Source of the DNA: Candidatus Micrarchaeota archaeon
GTDB taxonomy: Archaea; Micrarchaeota; Micrarchaeia; Norongarragalinales; SBBD01
NCBI GenBank assembly: GCA_038046605.1
Contig: JBBSVW010000073.1
Location: forward strand, 196-64,195
Direction: 5' to 3'
Length of the DNA stretch: 64,000 nt
Part shown: piece by piece, positions 31,668 through 64,000 of the stretch
How the letters are laid out: the number at the start of each line of letters is the position of its first letter
Numbering within the stretch: the stretch's first letter is position 1
The notes under the pieces: generated by a model
Told to the model about the DNA's origin: nothing
Databases searched by the model: none
Seen by the model: only the letters and a program-made list of their open reading frames with translations
Program-made: the position numbers and the translations under genes

Positions 31668-31795
31668 GGACTTGCAATTAAGCTCACGTGTTTTACTATT
31701 TGCACCTTAACCCTTTTTATTCCTCATTTCAAAAAAATTATAGATTTTGCAACAGTTTAAAAGCCTCTTTTCCTTCAATTTTGCGAGGGGTATAG

Positions 31796-33064
31796 TTGAA
31801 AATTGGGATACTGACAGGCACTAGGCCTGACATCATCAAAATGGCGCCGGTCTACTGGGAGGCAAAGCGCTGGGGGCATAGGCCGGTTCTAATCCACACC
31901 TCGCAGCACTTCCCCTACCACCTATTCGAGGGCGTTTACCGGGATTTGGATTTGCCCTTCCCCCCTGATTATTTGGTGCAGTATGGCATTGTAAAGAAGC
32001 TGGGCGTGCACGTTTCAAAGGCGGCCTATCATTTGGATGAGGGCGCTAATCTAGGGCTCTCCAAAAAATTCGAGAATCTTGCAACCAAAATCACCTCAAG
32101 AAGGCCAAATCCCGCTGCAACGGTGGGGAGCATAATGCTGGAGCTTAATTCCCTTTTCCAGGGCGAACTTAAGGATCTTGACATCCTGCTTGTGCATGGC
32201 GATACCCTGACAAACATGGCCGGCGCGCTTGCTGCTTCCCTTAACCTCATTCCCGTTGGCCATGTGGAGGCGGGCCTTCGAACTTTTTCAAAAGAGCCCT
32301 TTCCCGAGCAGATAGATACGCGTGTTGCGGATGCATGCTCCGATGTATATTTTGCAGCAACGAAAACCAACGAAATCAACCTGATAAATGAGGGGTATCA
32401 AAGAGACCGGATCTTTGTTGTTGGCAATACCGTAGTTGATGCGGCGATATTTGCTGCCAGGAAAGGGAAATCGAGCCGCGCCTTTTTTGAGAAATTGGGC
32501 TTTGATTTTTCAAAAAAGCTGGTGTATTTCTCATGCCATCGCAGGGAGAGCCTCATGCATGAGCAAAGGTTTAGGGCAATTGTTTTTGCAATGGCTAATC
32601 TTAGCGATCTTGGCTACCAAGTCCTTTGGTCGGTTAGGCCCGGGACACAAGAAGCTATCAATAAATACGGCCTGAATCCCATGCTGAAGGACCATCCAAA
32701 CCTTCGCCGGGTATCTGAAATTCCAAGGTATTCCGATATTATGTTTTTCATTTCAAAATGCCATCTAGTTGCAACCGATTCCGGAAGCATGCAGGAGGAA
32801 ACTGCCGCCCTTCATGTGCCAACTGTTACCCTAAGATTTGTCACGGATAGGCCAGAGAGCGTAGATGCGGGAGTAAACATATTGGCACCGCCAACATCGG
32901 AAAAGGCAATCCGGTCGATACTTGATACTGCCTCCTCTCCCAAGGTTAATAAGCAAATGCGCCTAAAAAAGAATCCTTACGGGGATGGCAAATCCGCCTT
33001 AAAAATAATTTCGTCACTAGAAAAGCTGGAGGGCAAATTTATCCGGTGGGAGCATGGAAAATAG
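31796..33064 (+). CDS. wecB: UDP-N-acetylglucosamine 2-epimerase (non-hydrolysing, WecB-like)
   Basis: IKMAPV N-terminus; VGHVEAGLRTF motif. Confidence 0.85.
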   Translation: MKIGILTGTRPDIIKMAPVYWEAKRWGHRPVLIHTSQHFPYHLFEGVYRDLDLPFPPDYLVQYGIVKKLGVHVSKAAYHLDEGANLGLSKKFENLATKITSRRPNPAATVGSIMLELNSLFQGELKDLDILLVHGDTLTNMAGALAASLNLIPVGHVEAGLRTFSKEPFPEQIDTRVADACSDVYFAATKTNEINLINEGYQRDRIFVVGNTVVDAAIFAARKGKSSRAFFEKLGFDFSKKLVYFSCHRRESLMHEQRFRAIVFAMANLSDLGYQVLWSVRPGTQEAINKYGLNPMLKDHPNLRRVSEIPRYSDIMFFISKCHLVATDSGSMQEETAALHVPTVTLRFVTDRPESVDAGVNILAPPTSEKAIRSILDTASSPKVNKQMRLKKNPYGDGKSALKIISSLEKLEGKFIRWEHGK

Positions 33065-34535
33065 GGTGCTACTAGGGATTGCATTGTTTGCGGCAATTTC
33101 CCTAGCGGGCTTTTTCCTATCGCTCTATGCAGTTTCTGGAAATGCGGCATACTGGTGGGATGAGGCTGAATACGGCATCCTATCAAGGAGCATGACCCAA
33201 AACGGCTACTTCGGGTTTTTTGGCGGCCCAAGCTATAGGCCCCCAATGCTCCCAGTTTACATCGCAATCCTGCGCGGCCTTGTTGGGGAATTGGCCTGGA
33301 TATTGATAATTCCCCTCTTTTCCGCCCTAAGCGCCGGGGCAATTTTCATCCTTTCAAGGAAGCTGTTTGGCGAAACTGCAGCGGTCATCGCCTCAATTCT
33401 CATGCTCTCTTCTAGCCTTTACATCTTCTATTCCGGCAGGCTATTAACCGAGGTTCCGGGCATCTTCTTTAGCGCCCTATCCGCTTACTTTTTCTTCAAA
33501 GCCTTTGAGGAAAAGCGCCCGCGCGATTTCCTCCTCCTCTGCCTTTTTTCCCTGACCGCGTTCCTGGTATACTATCGGTTTTCCATGATGCTTGTTTCGA
33601 TGGCACTCTTTGCCCTATTATTCCGGACAAAGGGCATTTTGGAAAATCTTAAGCCCATTTTGGCATCCCTGGCAATCTTTTTGATTTTGCTTGCGCCCCT
33701 CCTTCTCTACAGCAACTCCTATTTCGGATCGTTCATCGGCCTATTTTCCTCCTCGTATTCCGGCCAGCAACCCGAGCCCCTTGATTGGTTTATTTCCAAC
33801 ATAGGGCACATTTTCTCAAACATGTATGTTGTGGCATTCACAATTATTGCATTTATTTACGCTCTTGCATTTGGCCAAAAGCCAATCCGTTTCCTTGCGC
33901 TTCTTACAATTATCTCCTTCATTTCCGCAAGCGTGCTTCTTAACCACAAGGAGGATAGATACCTGATGCCCCTATTTCCAATCGTATTCATGCTTATTGC
34001 CGGCTTTTGCGCCGTGGTTTTGGAAAAAGCATATTCTGCAATAAAGGGCTTTTCGTCGGCGCACATGGAAAAGGGTGCAATCTATATTTCGGCAAGCATT
34101 CTTGTCCTTTTCCTGCTCTACCAATCAACACTTGCAAATATGGGGCAGGGCCTTTCGCTTTTCGAATCGAAAAAAGCCTCATTTGGGGATGTGAAGGAAG
34201 CGGCGCTATTTGTCCGCGACTCGACCCTGCCTCAAGATGCCGTAATGTCGGATTCCGTAACCGCCATGTTTTATATGGATCGCTATAGCGCGGGCTTTTC
34301 GTCAAGCAACATATCCTATGTCCAGGGGCTTCTTGAAAGCAAAAAGCCCAAATACCTTCTCATCACTGCCTACGAATCCAGGGATGCGTACATCAACGCG
34401 ATAAATAATATGAAAAATCTTAAGGTTGCAGCAAATTCGGTGGAATATGTGTTCCTCCATCCGGAAAAATTCCAGCTTGAGAAGGTATTCCCAACTGAAA
34501 CTTCCCCATACGTGATGGTTTTCAAAATAATTTGA
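33054..34535 (+). CDS. GT-C fold membrane glycosyltransferase (ArnT/PMT-like)
   Basis: First-loop WWDEAEY acidic motif after TM1. ~12 TM. Confidence 0.55.
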   Translation: MENRVLLGIALFAAISLAGFFLSLYAVSGNAAYWWDEAEYGILSRSMTQNGYFGFFGGPSYRPPMLPVYIAILRGLVGELAWILIIPLFSALSAGAIFILSRKLFGETAAVIASILMLSSSLYIFYSGRLLTEVPGIFFSALSAYFFFKAFEEKRPRDFLLLCLFSLTAFLVYYRFSMMLVSMALFALLFRTKGILENLKPILASLAIFLILLAPLLLYSNSYFGSFIGLFSSSYSGQQPEPLDWFISNIGHIFSNMYVVAFTIIAFIYALAFGQKPIRFLALLTIISFISASVLLNHKEDRYLMPLFPIVFMLIAGFCAVVLEKAYSAIKGFSSAHMEKGAIYISASILVLFLLYQSTLANMGQGLSLFESKKASFGDVKEAALFVRDSTLPQDAVMSDSVTAMFYMDRYSAGFSSSNISYVQGLLESKKPKYLLITAYESRDAYINAINNMKNLKVAANSVEYVFLHPEKFQLEKVFPTETSPYVMVFKII

Positions 34536-34536: not shown

Positions 34537-35847
34537 GTGATTTCCATGAAAATAGCATTCATTGGAGCGGGGTATGTGGGCCTAGTATCTGCCGTAGGCT
34601 ACGCCCTTGCTGGAAACGATAGCGTATGCATAGAAATTGATGAGCGCAAAATTGCGCAAATCAATGGCGGCAAGGCGCCAATTTATGAGGGGGGGCTTGA
34701 TGATGCGCTGTTGAAACTAACCCGCGATGGTAAACTTTTGGCAACCTCCGATTATAACGGCATAGCCTCCGCCCAGGCAATTTTCATCTGCGTTGGCACG
34801 CCTTCGGCGCAGGATGGTTCAATTGACCTGCGGTATATTGAGGATTCCTGCGCTAAAATAGCCTCAATTCTCCCAAAAATGAAGGGATACCCAATTGTCG
34901 TGGTCAAGAGCACGGTAATTCCAGGGACCACAAGCGGCCTTGTCAAGGGAATTTTGGAAAAGGGGAGCAAACTGCGCGCAGGAAGGGATTTTGGGCTTGC
35001 CATGATGCCAGAATTCCTTAGGGAGGGAACCGCACTTGCTGATTTCAAGCATCCGGATAGGATTGTCATTGGAACCATGGATGAAAAAACAAGGAAGGTG
35101 CTAATGGGTCTGCATTCAAAATTCCCAGGCGAAAAACTCATTGTCAGCCCCTCCGCGGCAGAGATGATCAAGTACGCAAGCAACTCATTTTTGGCAACCA
35201 AAATCTCATTTGTGAACCAGCTTGCGCTGCTTTGTGAAAAAACCGGCATTGATGTTGATGATGTTGCAAGGGGGATGGGACTTGACAATAGGATAGCGAT
35301 GCCATTCCTTCGAGCGGGCCCGGGTTTTGGAGGAAGCTGCTTTCCTAAGGATGTTAGGGCCCTGATGCATTTTTCAGGCAAGGAAGGGGTTGAACCCACA
35401 ATTCTCGAATCCGTAATGTTGGTAAATTCCCTGCAGCCGCTTTGGCTAATTGGGGCGGCGCAGGAAAAAATGCCCCTTAAGGGCAAAACAATTTGCATCC
35501 TTGGCCTTGCATTCAAGCCGGATACCGACGATGTGCGCGAATCGCCTGCGATCCCAGTCATTTCGCAGCTTTTGAAAATGGGATGCAAGGTTTTGGCATA
35601 CGATCCCAAAGGAATGGCAAATTTCAAAAAGCTATTTCCCAAGTTGGATTATGCCAATTCAATGGATGATGCGCTTAAAGGCGCCGATGCCTGCATGATA
35701 ATAACCGATTGGAAGGAATTCAAAAAGCCAATTGCCCATTATGAGAGGCTAATGAAAAATCCACTCATTTTGGATTCAAGAAGGATACTTGATCCAAAAA
35801 CCGCAATTACTGCAAGTTATATTTCGCTTGGAAGGGGAATTGCATGA
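34537..35847 (+). CDS. Nucleotide-sugar 6-dehydrogenase (UDP-glucose / UDP-ManNAc dehydrogenase family)
   Basis: N-terminal IGAGYVGL Rossmann motif; catalytic [10 protein letters not shown]. Confidence 0.9.
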
Positions 35848-36794
35848 AAGTATTTGTCACCGGAGGCGCGGGATTCATAGGGAGCCACGTATGCGAAAAA
35901 TTGGTATCACTTGGGCATGAGGTAATTGCAATTGACAATTTCGATCCTTACTACGGAAAGGGGCAAAAGATCGCCAATATTTCCCCCCTTAAGAAAAGCA
36001 AAAAATTCCACTTTTTGGAAATGTCCATCCTATCCCCCGAATTTCCCGCCTATCTGAAGGAATCCGGCGCGGATTCGATAATCCACCTTGCTGCAAGGCC
36101 CGGCGTTAGGCCCTCGCTTGCCGATCCATTCATTTACCAGAAAATAAATGTGGAGGGCACCCTTAGGGTTTTGGAGGCATGCCGAATTGCGGATATTTCC
36201 AATCTTGTTTCCATTTCCTCCTCATCAGTTTATGGAAATTGCAAAACCAAGCCCTGGAAGGAAACTGATACCCCCCTTCCGGCTTCCCCCTATGGCGCAT
36301 CCAAGCTTGCCGGTGAGGCCTACGTCCGCGCTTACCACGAACTATATTCCATTTCCGCCAAATGCCTTAGGTATTTTTCAGTATACGGTGAAAGGCAGCG
36401 GCCCGACCTTGCACTTGCGCTCTTCGCCAATGCAATGATGGAAAATAAGCCCATCAGGATGTTTGGGGATGGCTCATCTCTTAGGGATTACACCTATATC
36501 TCCGATGCCGTCGATGGCACGATTTCAGCCCTTTTGGCAAATCCGGATTTCGAGATTTTCAATATAGGCAATTCAAAGCCAGTTGCGCTCAAGCGTTTAA
36601 TTAACCTACTGGAGCAAAATCTTGGAGTGAGCGCCAAAATTGAGCGCCTCCCGGAGCAAAAGGGCGATTTGTCGGATACGTATGCTGACATTAGCAAGGC
36701 AAAAAAAATGCTGAATTATTCCCCAAAGGTTGGAATTGAATGGGGGGTAAAAAAATACATCGAGTGGAGGAAAAAGGCATGGATTGGGAAGTGA
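35844..36794 (+). CDS. NAD-dependent nucleotide-sugar epimerase/dehydratase (SDR-extended)
   Basis: [11 protein letters not shown]; YGASKLAGE (YxxxK). Confidence 0.85.
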
Positions 36795-36890
36795 TTAATG
36801 CATTTCGTAGTCATATTGCGCAAATTGCAAAAAATCCAGGCTTACCATTTGAATTGCAATCCAACGGATGAAAAAGGCGAAAAATCAAAT

Positions 36891-37835
36891 ATGTTAATTT
36901 CAATAGTAATCCCGGTATTCAACGAAAAGGAAAACATCCAACCCCTGGTTGCAGAAATTGGCAAAACAGCTTTTTCCCTTCGTAAAAAGGGCATGCAAAC
37001 CGAGCTGATCCTTGTGGATGATGGCAGCACCGATGGCACATTCAAGGAAATCCAAAGGCTAAAAGTGCAATCCCCAAATATCCGGGCCATAAGATTCCGG
37101 AGGAATTTTGGCCAGACGGCGGCCTTTGATGCGGGTTTTGCGCAGGCCAAGGGCGAGGTTGTAATCACAATGGATGGCGATTTGCAAAACGATCCTGCCG
37201 ACATCCCCTTGCTTTTAGATAAACTGAACGAAGGGTATGATGTTGTTTCGGGATGGCGCTTTGAACGCAAGGACGCCGCCTTTTCAAAAAAGCTCCCCTC
37301 ATTGTTTTCGAACTATCTTGCAAGGTCCCTAACAGGCCTTAAGCTGCATGATTTCGGCTGCTCGCTTAAGGCATACCGACGCGAAGCACTCAAGGATCTG
37401 CGCCTATTTGGCGAAATGCATCGTTTCGTTCCTGCAATCCTGTTTACAAAGGGCTTTCGGATCGCGGAGGTAAAAGTCCGCCACAGGCCCCGGAAATTTG
37501 GCAAAACCAAGTATAATTTTACGCGCCTGCTAAAGGGCTTCCTCGACTTGCTCTACATCAAGTTCTGGTCCTCCTTTTCCACAAGGCCCCTTCACCTATT
37601 TGGCCTCATGGGCTTTTCCATGCTGTTCGTATCCGGCCTGATTGCGGCATACAAGTTTCTTGCATTGGTGTTCTTTTCGCAGCCAATCGAGGTCACCCCC
37701 GCACTATTGTTATCAGTTTTGCTTGCAATCCTTGGCTTATTGTTCATAATGTTTGGCTTCCTTGGCGAGGTGCAGGTTAGGACCTACTACAACACTTCTA
37801 AGGAGCACGAATATGAAATCGAAAGGAAAATATGA
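36891..37835 (+). CDS. GT2 polyprenol-phosphate hexosyltransferase (DPM1/GtrB-like) with C-terminal TM helices
   Basis: ISIVIPVFNE, VDDGSTDGT, MDGDLQND motifs. Two C-terminal TMs. Confidence 0.8.
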   Translation: MLISIVIPVFNEKENIQPLVAEIGKTAFSLRKKGMQTELILVDDGSTDGTFKEIQRLKVQSPNIRAIRFRRNFGQTAAFDAGFAQAKGEVVITMDGDLQNDPADIPLLLDKLNEGYDVVSGWRFERKDAAFSKKLPSLFSNYLARSLTGLKLHDFGCSLKAYRREALKDLRLFGEMHRFVPAILFTKGFRIAEVKVRHRPRKFGKTKYNFTRLLKGFLDLLYIKFWSSFSTRPLHLFGLMGFSMLFVSGLIAAYKFLALVFFSQPIEVTPALLLSVLLAILGLLFIMFGFLGEVQVRTYYNTSKEHEYEIERKI

Positions 37836-38022: not shown

Positions 38023-39105
38023 ATGCGTTGGGGACTGCTCAAACTTCTGGAATGCATCAAATGCAGATCTTCATTAAGCCTGCGCACTCTTGAAGAGGAT
38101 GGGGATGAGATTGTTGAAGGTGCGTTGGAGTGCAAAAAATGCGGTGAAAAATACCCCATAATAAGGGCTGTCCCCCGGATGCTTCCGCCGCACTTCATGG
38201 CCGAGCTTGTATATCCCAAATACCCCGAATTTTTCAGCAAGCACAGGAAGCATTTTCCGCTTGCAAATTCCAGCGCAATTGTTGGATTTGAAAACAACGC
38301 AAAGGCAAAAACTTCCAAGAGCTTTGGGTATGAGTGGAAGAAATTCCCCCATTTCCACAGGATTTACAAGCGCCAATTCATCGACTGGCTATCCCCCAAC
38401 AAGCCCTCCATGTTCGAAGGGAAATTGGTGCTGGACGCCGGCTGCGGCATGGGCCGCCACCTTGCGGTCGCATCCGATTATGCCCGGGAAATTGTGGGTA
38501 TTGACTTAAGCGAGGCGGTTGATGCATCCTACGGCAACTTGCGCTCAAGGAAAAACGTTCACCTGGTCCAGGCCGACATTTACAATCTTCCCTTTGGAAG
38601 GCCCTTTGATCTTGCCTATTCGATTGGCGTTTTGCATCACCTCCCAAATCCGCAGGCTGGTTTCAAATCAATCCTGACCCACATTAGGCGCGGGGGCCAA
38701 ATATTTGTGTGGGTTTATGGCCACGAGGGGAATTTTGTGATGGTAAATATCATCGAGCCCTTCAGGAAGCTTTTCACATCCCGTTTGCCCCATGGCGCGC
38801 TATACCTTCTTTGCCATCCTGTGACAATTGCCCTTGAGCTCTCCTGCCTCCTCTACCAGTTGCTTAATGCAATTCCTCTTGTCAACATTGCAGCAAAATA
38901 CCTCCCAAGCAACACCTATCTTTTATACATTGCAAACTTTTCCTTCCGGCACAAGCTGGCAATTGTGTTCGATTTCCTCTCTGCGCCCCTTGCGCGCTAC
39001 TACCGCAAGGCTGAATTTGCCAAATGGTTTGCAAATGCAAAGCTTAAAGCAAAATTATATCCACATAATGGCAACAGCTGGAAGGCGCTTTCGCAGGTGA
39101 ATTAG
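38023..39105 (+). CDS. Zinc-ribbon (Trm112-like) + class I SAM methyltransferase
   Basis: N-terminal CIKC...CKKC; motif I VLDAGCGMGRH. Confidence 0.7.
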   Translation: MRWGLLKLLECIKCRSSLSLRTLEEDGDEIVEGALECKKCGEKYPIIRAVPRMLPPHFMAELVYPKYPEFFSKHRKHFPLANSSAIVGFENNAKAKTSKSFGYEWKKFPHFHRIYKRQFIDWLSPNKPSMFEGKLVLDAGCGMGRHLAVASDYAREIVGIDLSEAVDASYGNLRSRKNVHLVQADIYNLPFGRPFDLAYSIGVLHHLPNPQAGFKSILTHIRRGGQIFVWVYGHEGNFVMVNIIEPFRKLFTSRLPHGALYLLCHPVTIALELSCLLYQLLNAIPLVNIAAKYLPSNTYLLYIANFSFRHKLAIVFDFLSAPLARYYRKAEFAKWFANAKLKAKLYPHNGNSWKALSQVN

Positions 39106-41052
39106 ATGTGCGGCATTGCCGGGGTTATTGGCTTATCTGATAAATCGCTCATCAGGAAAATGTGCGATATCATCGCTCATCGCGGCCCAAACCATGGCGG
39201 CTACCATATTGATAAGGATGCATCAATTGGCTATCGTCGCCTGGCCATAATTGACGTAAAGGGCGGAAACCAGCCGATTTACAATGAGCAGGGCGATATC
39301 TGCATCGTCTTCAACGGCGAAATATACAATTATTTGGATCTAAAGCCCGCGCTTGAAAAAAAGGGGCACAAATTTACGACCAATTCCGACAGTGAAACCA
39401 TTTTGCATGGCTACGAGGAATATGGCGAAGGGATTGTTTCCAAGCTTCGCGGCATGTTCGCTTTTGCAATATGGGATTCGCGCAAAAAAAAGCTCCTGGT
39501 TGCGCGCGATAGGTTTGGGAAAAAGCCGGTTTATTTCACCCATGCAAATGGCGCATTCGGCTTTGCATCCGAAATAAAATCCCTCCTGCTCATGCCGGAT
39601 TTTAGCAAGGAGCTTGATTATTCTGCAATTGATTCTCTTCTAGCTTTCCGCTTCATACCTTCGCCGAATACGATTTTCAAGAATGTAAAAAAGCTTCCCG
39701 CCTCCCACTTTTTAATTTTTGAGAAAGGGAAACTTTTGCTTAAACGGTACTGGTCGCTGAATTATTCGCCAGTTGAGAGGACGGATTCCCTTGCTGCAAA
39801 AAAGGTGCGCACCCTATTGGAAGAATCCGTACGAATAAGGCTAATGTCCGAAGTCCCTCTTGGCGCTTACCTTTCCGGGGGGCTTGATTCATCGGCAGTT
39901 GTAGGCTACATGTCAAAGCTGATGGACTCCGAAGTGAAAACCTTTTCGGTTGGCTTTGGCGTTGAAAAATACGACGAGCTAAAATATGCCAGGGAGGTCT
40001 CGGAGGCGTTTTCAACGGACCATCATGAGATTATCATTTTGCCGGACTCAATCAAGCACTTGCCGCAAATAATATGGCACCTGGATGAACCCATGGCGGA
40101 TCCAACCGTTATCCCAACCTACCTCCTCTCTAAATTTGCAAAGAAAAAGGTCACGGTGGTCCTAACCGGCGAAGGAGGGGATGAGATGTTTGCCGGCTAC
40201 GAGCAGTACAAATTCATGGACCTTGCATTCCGCCACGGGAAAAAATTCCCAAAATTCATCCGCCGACACATAATTGCAAATGCCGTTAGGAAGGCGCCTA
40301 AAAAACTGCTTGATTCCTTGTTCAAATACTCCTCGGCGCTTGGCACAAAAGGGCTTGATCGGTTTTCGGATTTCATCTCCGACCTTGATTCCCCTGCAAG
40401 GAGCTATCTTGAGCTTGTGCAGGTATATACCCAAAAGGAGAGGGATGCCCTATATGGCGCGCATCAGGATTTGCCAAAGGGTAAAAATATGCCCGCCGCT
40501 GTTGATTTTTCCAATAAATATTCCAATTCGTTTTCCCCTTCATTTGCCCATGGCGATCTTCTTTCCCAAATGCAGCTTTTTGATGTTCAAACGCAGCTAG
40601 TTGATGATCTTCTGATGAAGGTTGATAAAATGGCAATGGCCGCTTCAGTTGAGGCAAGGGCGCCCCTTTTGGATCAGGAGCTTGCGGCTCTTGCCTTCAC
40701 CCTAACTCCCGATCAAAAAATCCGGGGAAAGGTGGAAAAATTCATGCTAAGGAAGGCCACATCACAAATTCTTCCTAAAAGCGCAAAGGATAGGAAAAAA
40801 GCGCGCTTTTTTGTTCCGCTTGATTATTGGTTCAAGGACGGGCTTTTGGATATTGCAAGCAACCTCCTAATTGAGGGCGATAGGGGCCTTTTCGACAAAA
40901 CGCAGATTCAAAAGGTGATCGATTCATATTCCAATTCCAGGGCATATGCGGCTCGGCAGCTTTGGTGCCTCATATCCCTTGAGATGTGGATGCGAACCTA
41001 CCTTGATAATGACGGTAAAGCGCCTCTTAATTATAATGAGCTCGTAGGTTGA
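39106..41052 (+). CDS. asnB: Asparagine synthase (glutamine-hydrolysing) family amidotransferase
   Basis: MCGIAG N-terminal nucleophile; SGGLDSS PP-loop. Confidence 0.9.
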
Positions 41053-44280: not shown

Positions 44281-44326
44281 TTTACGAACCCTTTGGCGCA
44301 ATTTGCTAGCATTGCCTAAAAATGGG

Positions 44327-44572: not shown

Positions 44573-44678
44573 GCTATCACGATATTATTCGGTTGTAAAT
44601 GTTTATATTCCGTTGCAACCCGTTGGCGATTTTTTTAAGATATTTAAACTCCAAGCGCATCTATTATCTCAATCCAAA

Positions 44679-54672: not shown

Positions 54673-55674
54673 TTAAAGGAGCTTGGATGGCTTACCATCA
54701 AGGAAATTGCCATACCACTCAATTGTGCGCCTAAGCCCGGTTTCGAGATCGTATTCGGGCTCCCAGCCAAGGACGCGCCTGGCTTTTTCTATGGAAAGGT
54801 ACTGTTCGGGAATTTCCTTCCCAGCGGTATTGGTCCATTGGGGCTTAGCATTCGATTTGAGCAGTTTTAGCATCAAATCCACCACTTCCCTAACCCTGAT
54901 TACTTTGCCTGAGCTGAAATTGAACGCCTCGCCCGAAACCCCCTTCCTTTTGGCCTCAGTTCCAAGAAGCATGTACGCCCGGACAATATCGTCGATGTAG
55001 ACAAAGTCGCGTTTTGGGGATCCGTCGCTTCGCATTACAAGGGGAGTGCCGTATTTGACATACTTGATGACTTTTGGGATTAGCCTCTTGAAATTAAGAT
55101 CGCCCCCCCCGTAAGTATTCCCACAGCGCGCAACCGTTACGGGCAGGCCGTACGTCTCGAAATAGGAACGCGCAATCAGGTCTACGCAGGATTTGGAGAC
55201 TTCATATGGGAACGCGCCTTTCATGGGCATGTCCTCGGTGTATGGCAACTTGTCGGAAATGCCATATGCCTTGTCGCTGGATGCGACTACAACGGATTCT
55301 ACGCTCGAAGAGTTCCTTGCGGCCTCAAGCACGTTGCCAGAACCAATGATATTTGCATAAAATGTGCCCATCGGGTCCGATAGCGCCGTTGTCACCTGGG
55401 TCTGCGCCCCCATGTGGTAAATAACCTGGATTTCGTATTCCGCAAGGGTGCGCTTGATTAGGTCGTAGTCCTCCAATTTGCCGTGGACCATTACCGTATC
55501 CTTGTAAAGGCCGGTTGCAAATAACTGTGATTTGGGCACGAAGTCGCGCACAAGTGAAACCGTGTTGGCGCCGCAATTTTCCAAATGCTTGAGGATGGCC
55601 CCGCCAATGAAGCCCGATGCCCCCGTTATCATCACATTCTTGTCGTGCCAAAACTGGCCATCTGTTGCGCCCAT
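54673..55674 (-). CDS. CDP-glucose 4,6-dehydratase-like SDR
   Basis: FWHDKNVMITGASGFIGG N-terminus typical of the RfbG/DdhB family; YxxxK. Confidence 0.65.
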   Translation of the reverse strand: MGATDGQFWHDKNVMITGASGFIGGAILKHLENCGANTVSLVRDFVPKSQLFATGLYKDTVMVHGKLEDYDLIKRTLAEYEIQVIYHMGAQTQVTTALSDPMGTFYANIIGSGNVLEAARNSSSVESVVVASSDKAYGISDKLPYTEDMPMKGAFPYEVSKSCVDLIARSYFETYGLPVTVARCGNTYGGGDLNFKRLIPKVIKYVKYGTPLVMRSDGSPKRDFVYIDDIVRAYMLLGTEAKRKGVSGEAFNFSSGKVIRVREVVDLMLKLLKSNAKPQWTNTAGKEIPEQYLSIEKARRVLGWEPEYDLETGLRRTIEWYGNFLDGKPSKLL

Positions 55675-55785: not shown

Positions 55786-56310
55786 TTACTTTTGGGCGCT
55801 TTTGAAGGTGATCTTGCTATTCATGACGTAATTGTACATGAATGTCATGCCTATTGCAATGGCCATTGATAAAAGATAGAACATTTTTGCATATTCTGTC
55901 AGCAACAATAGGATGGCAATATTTGCAACCTGGCTTGTTATGTATATGGCCTCAAAATTAAGGAACCTTGAAAGGACTGGCTTTGCCTTGTCCCTTTTTG
56001 CAAAAGTCCAGTTGTCGTGCAAAACAAAATTCCAAATTATCGAGATCTGCGTTGCCAAAGCAGCTGAGATCAGGTAATGGACCTTTAGGATGTCCGTAAA
56101 CACCCAAAGAAGGCTAATTGTCAGGATCGTTGCACTAAGCCCAACAAGCAAGAATTTTGAAAAATCCTCGCCATGTTCCTTGATTTTTGTTAAAGCCTTT
56201 GCCCGTATTGACATGTTCCAATTCATCAGTTGGCGGCATTCAGAAATTAAGCGCCTGCCGATAACCATTCCGATATGTGCATTATTATTGCATTTGCCTG
56301 CCGGATCCAA
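55786..56310 (-). CDS. GtrA-family membrane protein
   Basis: 4 TM; HDNWTF motif. Confidence 0.65.
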   Translation of the reverse strand: MDPAGKCNNNAHIGMVIGRRLISECRQLMNWNMSIRAKALTKIKEHGEDFSKFLLVGLSATILTISLLWVFTDILKVHYLISAALATQISIIWNFVLHDNWTFAKRDKAKPVLSRFLNFEAIYITSQVANIAILLLLTEYAKMFYLLSMAIAIGMTFMYNYVMNSKITFKSAQK

Positions 56311-56316: not shown

Positions 56317-57567
56317 TCAATCGATCCGGTATACCCTGAACTTGCCGGAATATACCGCCTTGAAGCCGCATGCGGCCAATTCAGCCTTCCCTGATATCAC
56401 GTACCTAGATCCCGTATACCCCGAAAATTCCCTAATTGATCCGCATTCCGTTGTTACTTCCATGTATTTTTCAATGAGTGCAGCATCCCCTGCCGGGTCA
56501 TAATTCCCCAAGGGGCTGGAAAATCCCCTAGCCGCAAGGACCGAATAGGCAGTCGTTGGCACATCCCTTAAAAGGAAATACTTCCCATCCAATTCCAGGG
56601 CTGGAAAATCATCCCCCAGCTGCGGTGGGAAATATGCCGCCTTCCCAAGGCCATATCCTATCAGCAGCAGGGCAATCCCGATCGAGGCAACGGACCTGTA
56701 TTTGATGATGAATAATCCCGCTGCAATCAATATCAAAAGGCCGCCTACAAGCAAAATGTAGCCCGAAAGGGCAATGCCGACAATCGATGGCTTGTTGCTC
56801 GCTGATATGAAAGGGGCCCAGAAAAGAATTGATGGGGCAAGGCCTGCTATCGATATTGCAAGCGCATTTTTTATCCTCCCATTCATCTTTCCCTTGATGG
56901 CAATGAGCGCTCCCCCCATTATGGCAAGAAAGCCCAGAAGGATGATTGATTCAAGGAAATGCGTAAGCGAGGCTAACAGGGATGCGATGAATACAAATGC
57001 AATGGACCGGTTTGACGGTTTCCTAAGATATTGGGCAATGGCCAAAATCCAAAGGAACAGCATCACAAAGCCTGCAAATTCGCCGTACCTGCCGGAGTTG
57101 AAAAAGCGGCCAACTGATATGGTCGATGAAAGAATCACGGCGCAGGCAAATGCGCCATCGATGCTTTCCCTTCCAAGGGCCCTTGCCAGTTGCAGGCAGA
57201 TCCAAAGGAGCATGATTTGCAAAAGCAGCATCGATAACGCAAGCGCCAGCCCCAAATTCCCTACAGCGAAATAAGCAAAGGTATCTATCAGGACTGAAAC
57301 CGGGGGATAGTACATGAAAAGGGATGTGCCATTGTACCATTCCTTTGTGTATGAGTAGTCCTCAAGGAAAAAATACGGCCTTATTGCATGGGAAGAAAAA
57401 TCCGAATCGTTGGATAAAAGGTCGATTGAAAATAGCTGGTAATTTTTCAGGGCGATGATGCCAATTGCCAGGGCCATTATTGCATACATCGCAAACCTGT
57501 ATGAGGCATTTTTTCCCATTTTACCAACTGGATAAGATGAATTGATAGGTATTTTAGCTTTCGGCAT
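56317..57567 (-). CDS. Polytopic membrane protein (possible glycosyltransferase / oligosaccharide polymerase)
   Basis: >10 TM. Located in the glycan locus. Confidence 0.45.
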   Translation of the reverse strand: MPKAKIPINSSYPVGKMGKNASYRFAMYAIMALAIGIIALKNYQLFSIDLLSNDSDFSSHAIRPYFFLEDYSYTKEWYNGTSLFMYYPPVSVLIDTFAYFAVGNLGLALALSMLLLQIMLLWICLQLARALGRESIDGAFACAVILSSTISVGRFFNSGRYGEFAGFVMLFLWILAIAQYLRKPSNRSIAFVFIASLLASLTHFLESIILLGFLAIMGGALIAIKGKMNGRIKNALAISIAGLAPSILFWAPFISASNKPSIVGIALSGYILLVGGLLILIAAGLFIIKYRSVASIGIALLLIGYGLGKAAYFPPQLGDDFPALELDGKYFLLRDVPTTAYSVLAARGFSSPLGNYDPAGDAALIEKYMEVTTECGSIREFSGYTGSRYVISGKAELAACGFKAVYSGKFRVYRID

Positions 57568-57616: not shown

Positions 57617-58381
57617 TCATTTGGATAGGATAAACTTGCTGTTTTTGGCAATCCCTTTCTTGTGCAGCCAGAACTCCGCCATTTCGCTTAGGATGTTGAG
57701 GGAATACTTGACCAGCTGCATGGGCGTTGGCGAGTGCGCCTCCTTGCCATAATGCGTCGGGATTGGCATTTCAACTATCCGGAATTTGAGCAATTTTGCC
57801 TGTATCAGGATGTCGGTGTCGAAATGGTAATCGTTTGAGCATTTATCGAACCTGACCTTGCGCAATGCCTTGCAGCTATAGATTCGGTAACCCGAATGGT
57901 ATTCAGAAAGGTCCATCCCAAGGACCAGGTTTTCCACCCAGGTCAGGAACTTGTTTCCCATATATCGGATGATTGGCATCCCTCCGCCTAGGGGGTTCCC
58001 CTTCATCCTAGAGCCAAAAACCAAATCCGCCTTCCCCTGCTCAATTGGCAAAAGGAGTTTTGGCAACAGTTCCGGGGCATACTGCGCATCGCCATGCAGC
58101 ATCACCACGATGTCGTATTTCTTCCTAAGCACATATTCGTATGCCTTCTTTTGCGATCCGCCATAGCCCAGGTTATGCTCATTCCGTATTACATTCAGGT
58201 TCGATAGCCCCTTTTCCTGCTTATAGCCAATAGCCGTGAGGTATGTGTTGTCGGGGCTTGCGTTGTCAATCACAATGATTTCCTTTACGCGCTTTTTGAT
58301 TTCCCTAGGTATGCGGTCAATCACCCTTGGCAATGTGTGCGCCGCATTGTATGTCGGTATGAATATTGCTATTTTTTTCAT
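57617..58381 (-). CDS. GT2 glycosyltransferase
   Basis: IAIFIPTYNA, DNASPD, HGDAQYAPE. Confidence 0.8.
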   Translation of the reverse strand: MKKIAIFIPTYNAAHTLPRVIDRIPREIKKRVKEIIVIDNASPDNTYLTAIGYKQEKGLSNLNVIRNEHNLGYGGSQKKAYEYVLRKKYDIVVMLHGDAQYAPELLPKLLLPIEQGKADLVFGSRMKGNPLGGGMPIIRYMGNKFLTWVENLVLGMDLSEYHSGYRIYSCKALRKVRFDKCSNDYHFDTDILIQAKLLKFRIVEMPIPTHYGKEAHSPTPMQLVKYSLNILSEMAEFWLHKKGIAKNSKFILSK

Positions 58382-58494: not shown

Positions 58495-59802
58495 TCATTT
58501 CTTGAGGAATTCGCCCATTTTTTTTAGCATGTAATTGCATTCAGCTTCGGCTATCCCCGGGTACACTCCGAGGAAAAACGAATTTTCCATGACAATATCG
58601 GAGTTTTCAAGCCCGCCTGATATGCGGTATTTTGCCTCCCTATATGCCGGCTGCTTTGTAAGATTGCCGCTAAACAGCCTCCTGCTCTCGATCCCCGCCC
58701 CATCCAGGAACAGCTGCAGCTCGCGTATCTTAAAGCCCGATTCCTTCCTTATGGTTAAAGGGAATCCGAACCATGACACTTCCGCTTTTTTGTGCCATTT
58801 TGGCAGCATGAATGCTTCGGAGTGCTTTTGCATCCCCTCATATAGGCGCTTGAAATTGCGCTTCCTTGCCTCCACAAACGAAGGCAGCTTTCTTAGCTGC
58901 TCAAGGCCAATTGCCGCCTGCATCTCAAGGGGCTTAAGGTTGTAGCCGATATTATCGTAGATGTATTTGTGATCGTAGGGAACGCCTCCTATTTTGAAAT
59001 CAAACCTTACGCCGCAGGTGTTCGATTTCCCAGGGTCGCACCAGCAGCTCCTGCCCCAATCCCTAATCGAGCGCAATATCTTATCCAGGAGTTTTGTATC
59101 CGTCGCAATCGCTCCACCCTCCCCCATGGTAATGTGATGGGCTGGATAGAACGAGAATGTTGCCATCTGCCCAAATGAGCCCAGGGGCTTACCATCAAAT
59201 TTCCCCCCAAGGGCATCGCAGCAATCCTCAATCAGTAGCAAATTGTGCTTTGCTGCAAATTCAGTTATGGCCTGCATATCCGGCGGGTTCCCAAGCGTGT
59301 GGGCAAACATTATGGCCCTTGTCTTATCACTTACTGCCGCCTCAAGCTTGCTTATATCGATTGCATACGAGCCAAGCTCCACATCCACGAAAACGGGCAC
59401 AAGATTGTTTTGTATCATGGGATTTACTGTTGTTGGGAATCCTGCGGCTACGGTTATGACTTCATCCCCGGCATGCAGCCTTCTTGAGTACATCCAAGAG
59501 CAGGCGGCGCTGACCGCAAGCAGGTTTGCAGAGGAGCCTGAATTAGTGAGGACGCCGTACTTTAAGCCCAAAATTTGAGAAATCTCCCTCTCAAATTGCG
59601 CTCCCCTCCCCCCTAGCGTCAAATAGAATTCCAATAAAGTATCAAGCGATGCGAGCATCTCCTTTTCATCAAAGACCCTCCCCGCATAATTGATTTTGGA
59701 CTTGCCAGGCTCGAATTTCCCCTTTGCATGCGCAATCTTATGGTATTCGATGAGCAAATCCCTCATCTCATCCCTTAGCTTTGCCTTCCTTATTTCATCC
59801 AT
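58495..59802 (-). CDS. DegT/DnrJ/EryC1/StrS-family PLP enzyme, RfbH-like (CDP-4-keto-6-deoxyglucose 3-dehydrase-like)
   Basis: 435 aa. N-terminal YAGRVFDEKE. Adjacent to a CDP-glucose 4,6-dehydratase-like gene. Confidence 0.7.
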   Translation of the reverse strand: MDEIRKAKLRDEMRDLLIEYHKIAHAKGKFEPGKSKINYAGRVFDEKEMLASLDTLLEFYLTLGGRGAQFEREISQILGLKYGVLTNSGSSANLLAVSAACSWMYSRRLHAGDEVITVAAGFPTTVNPMIQNNLVPVFVDVELGSYAIDISKLEAAVSDKTRAIMFAHTLGNPPDMQAITEFAAKHNLLLIEDCCDALGGKFDGKPLGSFGQMATFSFYPAHHITMGEGGAIATDTKLLDKILRSIRDWGRSCWCDPGKSNTCGVRFDFKIGGVPYDHKYIYDNIGYNLKPLEMQAAIGLEQLRKLPSFVEARKRNFKRLYEGMQKHSEAFMLPKWHKKAEVSWFGFPLTIRKESGFKIRELQLFLDGAGIESRRLFSGNLTKQPAYREAKYRISGGLENSDIVMENSFFLGVYPGIAEAECNYMLKKMGEFLKK

Positions 59803-59803: not shown

Positions 59804-60682
59804 TTAATTCTCCATTTTAGCTTTGATAATTTTCAGGGCATCAAGCAAAGGCAAAGGTTCAATGCCAGTTTCCTTCAATAGTTTTTCGCAAACCAACCCC
59901 CCAAAAAGGGGCCTTTTTGCTGCTGTTCCTAGATCGGATGCCTTTACCCCGACTATTAATCCCTCTGGAAGGTTAAAAAACTTCGCAACCTGCATCGACA
60001 GGTCGTAGCGGCTGATGGTTTCCTTGCCAGCAACATTGTATGTCCCGCTTTTGCCAAGATCCAACAGCCTTCCGATTGCTCTTGCAATATGGCTTGCAAG
60101 GGTAGGCGTTGCGTAAAGGTCGGTTTGCGCTTTTGCTTCCTTTCCTTGCCTCAAATTGCCAATCAGCCTGACAACAAAATTCCTATCATCGTACCCATAA
60201 TCGAACACATTCCCCGTCCTAATTATCAAGCATCCGAGAACTTTCAAAGCCTCCTTTTCTCCATCTAATTTCGTCCTTCCATAAACGCTAATCGGCCCAG
60301 TTTTTGCATCCTCTTTGTATGGCCCAGCCTTCCCGTCAAAAACGTAGTCCGTCGAGAGGTAAACTAATCTGGCAGCATTTGTTATGCAAGCATCCGCCAC
60401 ATATTGGACCGCCAGATGGTTCATCCTTTGCGCCTCATCCGGATGGATTTCACAATAATCCACATTGGTGAGGGCGGCGCATAGGATCACGGAAAAGGGC
60501 TTTGTTTTGCCAATCAGCTCCCTAACCTCCTTTTCATTTGTGAAATCCAATTTGATCAAAGTTGCCTTAGGGTGGGTATTGTATGTGCCAATCAGTTCGA
60601 ACTGATCCCTTAAGGCCTCCATGCAAGCGCCCCCTATCTGGCCCGATGCGCCAATAACCAGCACTCTAGGTTTGCGTTCCAT
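59804..60682 (-). CDS. RmlD-like NAD(P)H-dependent 4-keto-sugar reductase
   Basis: VLVIGASGQIGGA; RmlD substrate-binding architecture. Confidence 0.7.
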   Translation of the reverse strand: MERKPRVLVIGASGQIGGACMEALRDQFELIGTYNTHPKATLIKLDFTNEKEVRELIGKTKPFSVILCAALTNVDYCEIHPDEAQRMNHLAVQYVADACITNAARLVYLSTDYVFDGKAGPYKEDAKTGPISVYGRTKLDGEKEALKVLGCLIIRTGNVFDYGYDDRNFVVRLIGNLRQGKEAKAQTDLYATPTLASHIARAIGRLLDLGKSGTYNVAGKETISRYDLSMQVAKFFNLPEGLIVGVKASDLGTAAKRPLFGGLVCEKLLKETGIEPLPLLDALKIIKAKMEN

Positions 60683-60827: not shown

Positions 60828-61694
60828 ATGGCAAAAGTGCTGGTAACCGGAGGCAGGGGGTTTATTGGATCACACCTCTCCAAATTCCTTGAGGGGAAGG
60901 GGCATGACGTTTCCATATTTTCCAAACGCGATGGGAAGGGAGGCGGAGACATAGCAGATTATGACTCCGTACTAAAGGCAACAAGCGGCATCGATTGGGT
61001 CTTCCATCTTGCAGGTGTATCGAGCGTTTCAAAAACCGGGGAGGGGAGCGATGAGATTTTCAAAAGCAACATTGCCGGTACGCATAATGTCCTGCTTGCT
61101 TGCCATCAAAACAAGGTAGAACGGGTGGTTTTTGCCTCCTCATCCTACGTTTATGGAAAACCACAAAGCATTCCTGTCTCCGAAAAATCAGCCCTTGCCC
61201 CACGAACCCTCTATGGCTTAAGCAAACTGGTTGGTGAGGAATATTGCCGCTATTATTCAAGGATTGGGCTCCAAACAATAATTGCCCGCCTTTTCAACGC
61301 TTTTGGGGAAGGCCAAACCGGAAGGGTGGTGCCCGACTTCATCTTGCGCTACAAAAAATCAAAATCCCCAGTTGAAATCCTTGGCAATAGCGCAGATTCA
61401 AGGGATTTCCTTTCCATTGATCAGGCATGCCTTGCCCTTTTGCTGCTCGCTGAAAAGGGCAAATCAGGGGAGGCTTACAATGTTGGCTCAGGAGTCGAAA
61501 CGCGCATTTTGGATTTGGCTAAACTGATAGCGCAGGAAATGGGCTCTAAAAACGATGCATTAAGAAAGGATTTAAATTATGAATATGATGAAGGAAGCGC
61601 TCTTCGCATGTTTGCGGATATTGGCAAGTTAAAAGCCCTGGGTTTTACCCCAAAATCGCTTGATGAAAGCCAGCTTTCCGCTATGATAAAATGA
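60828..61694 (+). CDS. NAD-dependent nucleotide-sugar epimerase (UDP-glucose 4-epimerase-like)
   Basis: VLVTGGRGFIGSHL; YGLSKLVGE. Start at internal ATG 60828. Confidence 0.8.
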   Translation: MAKVLVTGGRGFIGSHLSKFLEGKGHDVSIFSKRDGKGGGDIADYDSVLKATSGIDWVFHLAGVSSVSKTGEGSDEIFKSNIAGTHNVLLACHQNKVERVVFASSSYVYGKPQSIPVSEKSALAPRTLYGLSKLVGEEYCRYYSRIGLQTIIARLFNAFGEGQTGRVVPDFILRYKKSKSPVEILGNSADSRDFLSIDQACLALLLLAEKGKSGEAYNVGSGVETRILDLAKLIAQEMGSKNDALRKDLNYEYDEGSALRMFADIGKLKALGFTPKSLDESQLSAMIK

Positions 61695-61803
61695 TAATTT
61701 TCCCGTATTGGGATGGTTAGGCGAGTATGCAGGCAGGATAATAAATTACGGAAAACCCATATTTGCGCAAAATATTCCGCATGGATGAAATTTTAGTGAT
61801 AAA

Positions 61804-62763
61804 ATGGCAAAAAAGGCACTGATAACCGGAATAACGGGCCAGGATGGCTCCTATCTAGCTGAACTGCTTTTGAAAAAGGGTTATGAGGTTTGCGGCCTTG
61901 TTCGCCGCCAAAGCGCCCCAAATTATGCGCGCCTAGAGCACATTCTTGATAAAATCACCCTCATGGAAGGCGATCTTGCCGACCAGCAATCGATAAACCG
62001 CATCGTCAAGGAGGTATCGCCCGATGAGATTTACAACCTTGCGGCGCAATCCTTCGTATCCACCTCCTTCAAAGAGCCCCTCCATACCTCAGATATCACC
62101 GCCCTTGGCTGCCTTCGCATGCTGGAAGCCGTAAGGTACTATTCGCCGCATTCGAAATTCTACCAAGCATCGAGCAGCGAAATGTACGGCAAAGCGCTTG
62201 AAACCCCCCAAACGGAAACTACGCCCTTCCATCCAAGGTCGCCTTACGGCTTCTCAAAGGTATTCGCTCATTTCGCAACAATCAATTACCGCGAGAGCTA
62301 CAATCTCTTTGCCGGCTGCGGCATTTGCTTCAACCACGAATCCCCAAGGCGAGGAATTGAATTTGTCACCCGCAAGATTTCGGATGGAGTGGCCAAGATC
62401 AAGAAAGGGAAAGCAAAAAAGCTCATGCTTGGGAATCTTGATGCCTCAAGGGACTGGGGCTTTGCGGGGGATTACGTTGAAGCCATGTGGCTTATGCTCC
62501 AGCAAAAGAAGGCGGATGATTTCGTCATTGCTTCCGGGCAGACGCATACCGTAAGGGATTTTGTCGAGCTTGCCTTTGAGTCAGCCGGCATTGCGGATTA
62601 CCAGAAATATATCGAGATAAACAAGGAATTCCTAAGGCCAGCCGAGGTCGATTTGCTACTAGGGGATGCAGGGAAGGCAAAACGCGAGCTTGGCTGGAGC
62701 CCCAAAACGTCATTCCAATCACTTGTAAAAATGATGGTCGAGAGCGATATCGCAAGATACTGA
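61804..62763 (+). CDS. gmd: GDP-mannose 4,6-dehydratase
   Basis: [22 protein letters not shown]-terminus; YxxxK. Matches Gmd closely. Confidence 0.9.
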
Positions 62764-62886
62764 CGTTTGAATTTAAAGATTGGTAAAATAAAACTCGAAA
62801 CAATTAATTGCAAAATATTAACTAACACATCCCCATTTCTACCTCAAATATCTATATTTAAAAAAATCAATTTTGGTGTTCAATTC

Positions 62887-64000
62887 ATGCCCGAATTCAA
62901 GATTGGCGTTGGCACAGCCGACATAACCGAAACAGAAAAGCGCTATGTGCTGGATGCTCTCGAAAACAAGCGCCTCTCCTATGGCCCTTACATCCGCAGG
63001 TTTGAATCGCAGTTCTCAAGGCTGCACTCAAGGAAGCATGGCCTTATGTGCAACAGCGGAACTTCCGCCCTTCGCATCTCTGTTCTTGCATTGAAGGAAT
63101 TCTACAATTGGAAGGATGGTGATGAGGTTCTGGTTCCGGCGCTTACTTTCATTGCGACCTCGAATGTTGTCCTACAAAGCAGCCTAAAGCCCGTATTCGT
63201 GGATGTCGATCCGCTAACTTATGGGATAGATCCCAAATTAATTGAGGCAAAAATCACCTCCCGCACAAGGGCGATAATGCCGGTGCATCTGTTTGGCCTT
63301 CCCTGCGACATGGATCCCATCATGGAAATTGCCAAAAAGCATAAGCTTGCAATAATTGAGGATTCATGCGAAACCATGTTCGCCAAATACAAGGGAAAAT
63401 CCGTGGGTTCGTTCGGCGAGTTTGGTTGTTTTTCCACTTATATGGCGCATTTGATTGTGACCGGTGTTGGCGGATTGATTCTTTGCGACAACAATGAACT
63501 TGCGGTAATTGCAAGGAGCATGCTAAATCACGGCCGTGACAACATTTACATGTCAATTGATGATGACGATAATGTAGGGAAAAAGGAGCTTACCATGATC
63601 ATGGACCGCAGGTTCTCCTTTGTGCGCCTGGGTTACAGCTTCCGTGCAACAGAGCTTGAGGGAGCAATCGGCTGCGCGCAGCTTGAGCGCTGGGAGCAGA
63701 TTATAAAGGGTCGGCAGGCGAATGGCAAATATCTTATCGAGGGGCTGGAGCACCTATCTGATCGCATCCAGCTTCCATCCGCTCCAGCCGGAAGGGAGCA
63801 TGTTTTCATGATGTTCCCAATTGTTGTTAAGGATCCAAAGATTAAGCGCGATGAACTAACGCTCTATTTGGAGGAGCACGGAATCGAAACAAGGCACATG
63901 CTTCCCCTGATAAACCAGCCGATTTACCGGAAGCTCTTTGGCAACCTTGACCGCCAATTCCCCAATGCCGCCTTCATCAACGAGAACGGCTTTTACATCG
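62887..64000 (+). CDS. DegT/DnrJ/EryC1-family sugar aminotransferase (perosamine-synthase-like), 3'-partial at window end
   Basis: ORF open to the window end. YGPYIRRFESQF, CNSGTSAL. Downstream of gmd. Confidence 0.8.
   Translation, partial: MPEFKIGVGTADITETEKRYVLDALENKRLSYGPYIRRFESQFSRLHSRKHGLMCNSGTSALRISVLALKEFYNWKDGDEVLVPALTFIATSNVVLQSSLKPVFVDVDPLTYGIDPKLIEAKITSRTRAIMPVHLFGLPCDMDPIMEIAKKHKLAIIEDSCETMFAKYKGKSVGSFGEFGCFSTYMAHLIVTGVGGLILCDNNELAVIARSMLNHGRDNIYMSIDDDDNVGKKELTMIMDRRFSFVRLGYSFRATELEGAIGCAQLERWEQIIKGRQANGKYLIEGLEHLSDRIQLPSAPAGREHVFMMFPIVVKDPKIKRDELTLYLEEHGIETRHMLPLINQPIYRKLFGNLDRQFPNAAFINENGFYI

Follow-up and report, generated by a model that had tools for sequence, protein, structure and literature searches.

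The 64,000-nt stretch of DNA considered here (the window) belongs to contig JBBSVW010000073.1 of the Candidatus Micrarchaeota archaeon assembly GCA_038046605.1, and from position 31,796 to its end it carries a surface-glycan cluster of 27 intact genes and one pseudogene, all sugar-related according to Pfam, NCBIfam, and PDB sequence searches; these matches bear out the large (>32 kb) glycan island that a sequence-only reading of the same DNA had recognized from 31.8 kb. The inventory comprises four GT2 and one GT4 glycosyltransferases (GTs), three PMT_2/GT39 membrane transferases of the GT-C type, two GtrA proteins, one Wzx flippase, three intact methyltransferases, an AsnB-type amidotransferase, and several epimerases, dehydratases, and reductases of the short-chain dehydrogenase/reductase (SDR) type; the AsnB, four GT2, one GT4, at least three GT-C, two GtrA, and Wzx listed in that reading were all recovered by Pfam and NCBIfam. 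The cluster goes on for at least 0.9 kb past 64,000, with a further SDR fragment, on contig L002, which is 100% identical to the window. Of the 32 genes in the left 31 kb, only about 2 have to do with sugars and, therefore, the clustering to the right of 31.8 kb is not due to chance. The host is a groundwater Micrarchaeota archaeon (DPANN, Norongarragalinales-like): contigs 100% identical to the window come from Hainich groundwater, the closest loci belong to metagenome-assembled genomes of Micrarchaeota/Norongarragalinales, and the left half of the window contains archaeal helix-turn-helix (HTH) domains, a deoxyhypusine synthase, a Rad50-like ATPase, and an intron-containing tRNA. The three other species in which the locus stands beside the same Rad50-ATPase pair are GCA_041305345.1 (L004/L021), the L009/L016/L017 lineage, and GCA_016212475.1 (L007, L018, and L022, which overlap or adjoin one another on one 320-kb contig). 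The cluster is probably a native, lineage-wide cell-surface glycosylation super-locus of this archaeon and not an integrated foreign island.

The recurrent block A extends from WecB to AsnB. WecB (31796..33064, +) is a non-hydrolysing UDP-GlcNAc 2-epimerase that, like GalU, RfbH, and Gmd, passes its curated equivalog cut-off (TIGR00236, 262 bits vs 210). The nucleoside diphosphate (NDP)-sugar 6-dehydrogenase of the block (34537..35847, +; TIGR03026, 440 bits) is nearest to the UDP-glucose dehydrogenases AglM/TuaD, with 433 bits for AglM and only 204 bits for the archaeal model of UDP-N-acetylmannosamine (ManNAc) dehydrogenase. Thus, in the UDP-N-acetylhexosamine route proposed earlier both enzymes are confirmed, but the dehydrogenase is nearest to UDP-glucose and not to UDP-ManNAc models. 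An SDR epimerase follows (35844..36794, +), whose best solved match is PDB 6zl6, presumably a UDP-glucuronate 4-epimerase, and the block is closed by the AsnB-type glutamine amidotransferase (39106..41052, +; Pfam/NCBIfam). The start codon of WecB is an unusual TTG, kept in L004 and L009, and an A/T box (TTTAAAAG / TTAAAAAG / TTAAAAAC) located about 35 nt 5′ of the gene (window 31700-31796) is common to the window, L004, and L009, which also keep a GAGGGG motif 5′ of WecB; A/T box, GAGGGG motif, and TTG start point to a putative conserved promoter for the first operon.

The other sugar-nucleotide enzymes lie in the right part of the cluster. GalU, a UTP-glucose-1-phosphate uridylyltransferase (53642..54505, −; TIGR01099, 387 bits vs 327), is followed by an SDR resembling NDP-hexose 4,6-dehydratases (54673..55674, −), whose nearest model is CDP-glucose 4,6-dehydratase with 186 bits, below the cut-off of 278. 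The RfbH-type NDP-4-keto-6-deoxyhexose 3-dehydrase, dependent on pyridoxamine phosphate (58495..59802, −; NF011936, 606 bits vs 423), adjoins an RmlD-like NDP-4-ketohexose reductase (59804..60682, −) that with 198 bits remains below the cut-off of 224. No glucose-1-phosphate cytidylyltransferase (RfbF), E3 reductase (RfbI), or ManC is present in the window, where GalU is the sole nucleotidyltransferase; an RfbF-like gene occurs in the locus of a relative (L007 6917-7717; 288 bits vs a cut-off of 300). In consequence, the CDP-deoxyhexose route of the sequence-only reading holds for RfbH, is left with two SDRs below equivalog cut-offs, and loses GalU, which is predicted to make UDP-glucose, to supply the AglM-like dehydrogenase, and to belong to the UDP and not to the CDP route. 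The GDP-mannose route stands as proposed: the block SDR-Gmd-Per is opened by a 288-aa SDR (60828..61694, +), with GDP-6-deoxy-4-hexulose reductases among its solved matches, and continues with Gmd, a GDP-mannose 4,6-dehydratase (61804..62763, +; TIGR01472, 443 bits vs 415), and with a DegT-family aminotransferase (62887..64000, +, on to about 64,077 beyond the window) that appears perosamine-synthase-like, its best PDB match being the GDP-perosamine synthase 3bn1 and its best solved matches being perosamine synthases, with 207 bits. The predicted products are UDP-glucose, UDP-glucuronic acid (then acted on by the epimerase-like SDR), and UDP-ManNAc through GalU, the AglM-like enzyme, and WecB; a GDP-6-deoxy/amino sugar through Gmd, the 288-aa SDR, and the perosamine-synthase-like enzyme; and an NDP-3,6-dideoxyhexose through RfbH and two SDRs.

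GT2, GtrA, and GT-C genes interleave in four neighbourhoods (33.0-42.6, 44.5-49.4, 50.6-52.9, and 55.8-58.4 kb). The first contains two PMT_2 GT-C membrane glycosyltransferases assigned by Pfam, one with 11 predicted transmembrane segments and orthologues in L004, L017, and L018 (33054..34535, +) and the other at 41144..42625 (+), together with a GT2 with C-terminal transmembrane helices (36798..37835, +), which is ArnC/PgfS-like (ArnC model E=3e-55, below cut-off) and a candidate polyprenyl-phosphate sugar synthase. The second starts with the GtrA-family small membrane protein that opens block B (44559..45071, +), a candidate lipid-sugar flippase by its Pfam match, and includes the Wzx/MOP-family flippase (45185..46825, −; Pfam, NCBIfam), a GT-C of the PMT/PMT_2, GT39 type (46869..48575, −; Pfam) whose identity is 69% in Micrarchaeota and falls to 32% elsewhere, and a small soluble GT2 with a weak AglJ/PgfS-like match (48695..49405, +), without a close orthologue among the relatives examined. 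The third is formed by a 590-aa polytopic membrane protein (50584..52356, +) and by the short GT2-like protein of 193 aa that pairs with it (52363..52944, +; orthologues of 193-194 aa). In the fourth, a second GtrA-family protein (55786..56310, −; Pfam) and a 416-aa polytopic membrane protein (56317..57567, −) precede a small GT2 weakly similar to AglJ/dolichyl-phosphate hexose transferases (57617..58381, −; Pfam, NCBIfam). The GT4 glycosyltransferase is located at 43153..44370 (−; Pfam, NCBIfam). The two GtrA proteins match PF04138 with 82 and 87 bits vs a cut-off of 26; the three PMT_2/PMT proteins are above the Pfam cut-off and these, together with the 590-aa GT-C, are all 0-3 genes from a small GT2. 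PDB sequence searches with the three PMT_2 proteins gave no match.

Five methyltransferases, two of them decayed, had been counted by the sequence-only reading; three are intact and one is a pseudogene. The intact ones are an S-adenosylmethionine (SAM) methyltransferase with an N-terminal Trm112-like zinc ribbon (38023..39105, +; Pfam, NCBIfam), a short class I enzyme of 186 aa (42636..43196, −; Pfam), whose 187-aa orthologue in L022 has 67% identity, and another SAM methyltransferase (49468..50442, +; Pfam, NCBIfam) without a close orthologue among the relatives examined. The pseudogene (53158-53518, −) is a frameshifted paralogue of the gene at 42636-43196, which tblastn recovers in two parts lying in different frames. 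Truncation was also considered for the 186-aa methyltransferase and the 193-aa GT2, both short relative to the Pfam models, and was rejected because orthologues of the same length exist at 61-67% identity.

The 590-aa protein has no Pfam match and only four close homologues, all from Micrarchaeota; an exhaustive profile search found 153 remote representatives, some with PF10131, YfhO, or DUF6541. The alignment of four sequences was unusable for AlphaFold modelling (predicted local distance difference test, 49), while a 40-sequence alignment gave a value of 78 and a predicted template modelling score of 0.85. The top 20 PDB fold matches of this model are all GT-C, with ArnT 5f15 first (E=3e-6) and then STT3, PglB, AglB, DPY19, and AftD. 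In a profile-profile comparison the family gave no signal against the PMT_2 proteins of the window, and the GT-C assignment therefore rests on the remote homologues and on the fold, by which the modelled protein is shown to adopt the GT-C architecture. The 416-aa protein, with a weak PF10131 match, a hhalign probability of 61% against the PMT_2 profile, and an orthologue in L018 (63% identity), is probably GT-C-like. An orthologue of the 590-aa protein in GCA_016212475.1 (L011 10001-11770, JACRGC010000013.1; 74% identity) is located outside the glycan locus of that genome, where it adjoins a DUF6541 membrane protein and a ribosomal protein operon.

Since GT2, GtrA, and GT-C genes interleave and soluble GT4 enzymes are represented by a single gene, a three-component route is the most likely chemistry of the locus. 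A small GT2 would charge dolichyl phosphate with a single sugar at the inner face, GtrA or Wzx would flip the dolichyl-phosphate sugar across the membrane, and four to five GT-C enzymes would then attach the sugar, outside the cell, to an S-layer or pilin protein or to a lipid-linked glycan. The sugars supplied could be glucose, hexuronic acids, ManNAc, the GDP-derived 6-deoxy/amino sugar, and a 3,6-dideoxyhexose; the AsnB homologue possibly amidates hexuronic acids, and the methyltransferases would add methyl decoration. In bacteria, three-component lipid-sugar systems are represented by GtrA/GtrB/GtrC, ArnC/ArnT, and CsbB/GtcA/YfhO, in which, as in the window, a small GT2, a GtrA-family protein, and a GT-C are found side by side; the likeness extends to the 590-aa protein, with ArnT as best fold match and with YfhO and PF10131 proteins among its remote homologues. 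Unlike these systems, the carrier in the window would be archaeal dolichyl phosphate, several modules occur per locus, and the genes are not phage-borne. Haloferax AglD/AglR/AglS provide an archaeal precedent for the dolichyl-phosphate sugar, flippase, and GT-C steps (PMC3871713).

It is conceivable, though doubtful, that the genes form instead an AglB-dependent N-glycosylation (agl) cluster, in which an oligosaccharide assembled on its lipid carrier inside the cell would be carried across by Wzx and passed en bloc to asparagines of the S-layer, with the GT-C enzymes adding only terminal sugars. Counterparts of AglF (GalU), AglM, AglP (methyltransferases), AglR (Wzx), AglS (PMT_2), and AglJ/AglD (GT2) are present (PMC3871713), and a glycosylated S-layer protein has been described in a cultivated Micrarchaeon (bioRxiv 10.1101/2021.04.28.441871). 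As in the agl clusters of Haloferax volcanii (PMC3871713, PMC5867893), a glucose-1-phosphate uridylyltransferase, a UDP-glucose dehydrogenase, SAM methyltransferases, and a Wzx-like flippase are clustered, GT2 enzymes that may act on dolichyl phosphate are accompanied by GT-C enzymes that would use dolichyl-phosphate sugars, and the content varies between related taxa. However, neither the window nor about 60 kb of related loci yielded an STT3/AglB, which may be encoded elsewhere in the genome, no WWD motif is suitably placed in the window, the 590-aa GT-C has no WWDXG motif after its last transmembrane helix, and one soluble GT4 contrasts with the four to five GT-C enzymes. The window differs from the H. 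volcanii clusters also in having four to five GT-C genes where those have one, in the additional RfbH and Gmd/Per branches, in its host, a reduced-genome DPANN archaeon, and in a native GC content, in contrast to an alternative Haloferax cluster of low GC; the glycosylation clusters of Haloferax are well known to vary, and that low-GC cluster looks mobile (PMC5867893).

The left edge of the cluster is marked by an array (31141..31668, +) that, on repeat and hairpin analysis, consists of the true 3′ end of a FlaI/TadA-like ATPase gene and four displaced copies of it. The copies contain the last 12-18 codons with the stop codon (31244-31297, 31346-31399, 31500-31553, and a truncated one at 31630-31668); all four keep the stop and are free of frameshifts and premature stops. 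Each is preceded by a two-tier hairpin (CGACAC..AGGGG-loop-CCCCT..GTGTCG) with z-scores from -1.9 to -4.0, whose inner stem covaries between copies. At a minimal count, 17 of the 26 substitutions in the array are at codon position 3 (P=8e-4) and only 2-3 amino-acid changes are present; being mostly synonymous, the changes indicate that the copies diverged as working gene ends and were stacked later, since decay in place would give a different pattern. The displaced copies carry the ‘DY’ residues of the window lineage and their donors are, therefore, close relatives. One analogous copy, with three synonymous and zero non-synonymous changes, is present in L004 (12265-12360), and none in the L009 lineage. 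The same hairpin family (CAACACGAGTAGGGAACCTAGGTTCCCTATAGGTGTTG) occurs at L006 3990-4027, directly 3′ of the stop codon of the deoxyhypusine synthase gene; this location after an unrelated gene suggests a general, lineage-wide palindromic element rather than a dedicated att site, and weakens its candidature as a specific att core.

On this array rests the view of the sequence-only reading that the cluster is a horizontally exchanged, strain-variable island, which would have been integrated site-specifically at the 3′ end of the ATPase gene and have left stacked att scars. Genomic islands that have integrated at the 3′ end of a gene, leaving tandem att remnants, are likewise edged by direct repeats of the last codons next to a variable region; the copies in the window and L004, their synonymous divergence in functional genes before being brought together, the genes after the ATPase that differ between species, and the one pseudogene all agree with such an origin, which is nevertheless unlikely. 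The deviation in GC and codon usage that it predicted for 31.8-64 kb relative to the left part is not observed: GC is 0.472 on each side of 31.5 kb and 0.44-0.50 across the window (2-kb windows), relative synonymous codon usage of left and right genes correlates with r=0.95 (random gene splits, 0.967 +/- 0.010, with 6% of splits as low or lower), and tetranucleotide profiles with r=0.97. Among the open reading frames of at least 90 aa scanned in 31.8-64 kb no integrase, recombinase, or transposase was found. Within the window the att-like repeats are limited to the left edge, without a distal copy within 32 kb, and the copies are parted only by the hairpin of about 45 nt, with no element remnants between them. 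ARAGORN detected no tRNA beside the locus as a possible integration target, and the only Rfam tRNA is far off, at 4729-4886. The conspecific contigs compared are all 100% identical to the window. The sole insertion sequence of the window is a complete IS630-like element with 26-nt inverted ends (21,293-22,367, −), outside the glycan locus.

The four gene-end repeats of the claimed integration-scar array are thus real, but as far as the window end no integrase in the locus, no distal copy, and no element DNA between the copies was found. From its sequence the array is read here as evidence of recombination with diverged alleles and not as a mark of integration of the 32-kb locus; an exchange between close relatives at the left edge is possible. 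That the array is the footprint of an undescribed hairpin-guided recombination, which would repeatedly import DNA of diverged sister strains at the head of the glycan locus and act as a built-in switch point for varying the surface glycans of DPANN archaea, is distinctly improbable.

The comparison with relatives bears most directly on the origin of the locus; three other species have a glycan locus beside the same Rad50-ATPase pair. In GCA_041305345.1 the genes after the ATPase are, in the order of the window and at 52-74% identity, WecB, GT-C, dehydrogenase, SDR, GT2, methyltransferase, and AsnB; next come a non-orthologous GT-C, an SDR-Gmd-Per block, and further glycan genes, over a length of at least 22 kb. 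In the L009/L016/L017 lineage, too, block A comes after the ATPase, with WecB, GT-C, and dehydrogenase at its head. GCA_016212475.1 encodes orthologues of 24 of the 27 window genes (44-76% amino-acid identity) in a locus of more than 40 kb by the same Rad50/ATPase pair, with blocks moved and inverted relative to the window; the 590-aa gene, elsewhere in the genome, is the 25th orthologue. Besides block A, the recurrent units are GtrA-Wzx-GT39 (also in L020), SDR-Gmd(-Per), GtrA-GT2-RfbH-RmlD (also in L013), and the pair of the 590-aa protein and 193-aa GT2 (in L013). In three genomes the GC of the locus follows that of the host (0.43-0.44 vs 0.42, 0.53 vs 0.51, and 0.47 vs 0.47). Island proteins, 52-74% identical to those of L004, are about as diverged as flank proteins (Rad50, 47%; ATPase, 82%), and 17 Micrarchaeota sequences precede the first bacterium among the nearest homologues of Gmd. 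Since the same blocks stand beside the same ATPase, with host-tracking GC and similar divergence, the locus is ancestral, long-resident, and internally plastic: its place next to the Rad50-like and FlaI-like ATPase genes predates the separation of these species, and it evolves by block shuffling and turnover of filler genes. Thus, of the exchanged island the variable content between species, the edge repeats, and one decayed gene stand, and the native composition, the lack of an integrase, and the ancestral position speak against it; in the same way, the synteny expected to break does so in gene content and order after the ATPase, but the locus itself is conserved at the site in the three other species.

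Some results weigh against a native locus working by the three-component route. In L003, L006, and L010 unrelated genes come after the ATPase, so that conservation of the junction is not universal; on the left of the ATPase, too, synteny is patchy over such distances, as in L004. The array points to past recombination with diverged alleles at the left edge, and the locus is seen from 31,796 to the window end and for at least 0.9 kb more, so that its right boundary is outside the window. With regard to function, neither an AglB oligosaccharyltransferase nor an initiating phosphoglycosyltransferase is encoded in the window, and the core pathway may lie elsewhere; the CDP branch has no cytidylyltransferase and E3 reductase within the window; and the small GT2s, with ArnC, PgfS, AglJ, dolichyl-phosphate hexose transferase, and PpgS as best matches, are all below NCBIfam cut-offs.

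A Wzx/Wzy-type capsule or exopolysaccharide locus producing a repeat-unit polymer is highly unlikely, because the Wzx, GT4, RfbH, Gmd, and Per-like genes typical of O-antigen loci and the variable content between conserved blocks are not accompanied in the window by a Wzy-like polymerase, a chain-length regulator, an export protein, or an initiating phosphoglycosyltransferase, and the two unannotated membrane proteins resolve as GT-C-type, one by its fold and one probably, and not as a polymerase. The resemblance to bacterial O-antigen (rfb)/capsule loci concerns RfbH, the 4,6-dehydratases, the RmlD-like reductase, Gmd with the perosamine-synthase-like enzyme, Wzx, and the block mosaic between conserved neighbours; unlike those loci, the window contains no Wzy, Wzz, WaaL, initiating transferase, RfbF, or RfbI and has no atypical GC.

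A native glycosylation locus of this kind is solid but unsurprising, in an unusual host. Genomes of DPANN archaea have a size of about 1 Mb and these organisms are thought to lean on their hosts for building blocks. The cultivated Ca. Micrarchaeum harzensis, in whose genome no genes for activated-sugar synthesis were found, has a glycosylated S-layer for which a dependence on sugars from the host was proposed (bioRxiv 10.1101/2021.04.28.441871). By contrast, more than 32-42 kb in the archaeon of the window and in its relatives are given over to making nucleotide sugars and to GT-C transferases, at least four in number, of which the 590-aa protein represents a small family without annotation. 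In this contrast lies the main biological interest of the locus; it suggests a surface coat that is elaborate, made by the cell itself, and specific to the species, a trait relevant to the attachment to hosts and the evasion of viruses. A groundwater virome paper (PMC12960796) holds nothing specific to this locus. More generally, a glycan cluster accompanied by repeats is not to be taken as an imported island before relatives are compared.

Other features of the window and of the related loci can be added. To the left of the ATPase (window 18634-20079 and 22668-24488), a phosphoglucomutase/phosphomannomutase (PGM/PMM), a small GT2 of 240 aa, and a conserved 371-aa unknown protein hold the same position in relatives, and sugar genes are thus found also on the ‘core’ side of the supposed boundary. 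The transposase of the IS630-like element is split into two overlapping frames, HTH (21692-22327) and DDE_3 (21297-21782), and the element is not at this position in L003, L006, and L008. The intron-containing tRNA (158 nt, window 4729-4886, −) is recognized by Rfam with 40 bits and was missed by ARAGORN. In related loci, L022 17417-20077 encodes a SIS isomerase, a HAD phosphatase, a cytidylyl/adenylyltransferase-like protein, and a PfkB kinase, with the look of a nucleotide-heptose pathway, and L018 8214-9892 a GHMP kinase and nucleotidyltransferase pair; neither set is in the window. The ATPase gene alone is inverted relative to its Rad50-like neighbour in L007 10001-16268 and L015 2350-8666, with its 3′ end facing Rad50 and not the glycan locus. 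Orthologues of the FlaI/TadA-like ATPase with inteins of about 500-530 aa are present in L006 (10085-15451), L007 (10001-13840), L008, and L014-L017; the Walker A loop is the insertion site of one (GSRGAGK|C...VHN|T), and a second intein is present in L006, whereas the ATPase of the window (28870-31194) is intein-free.

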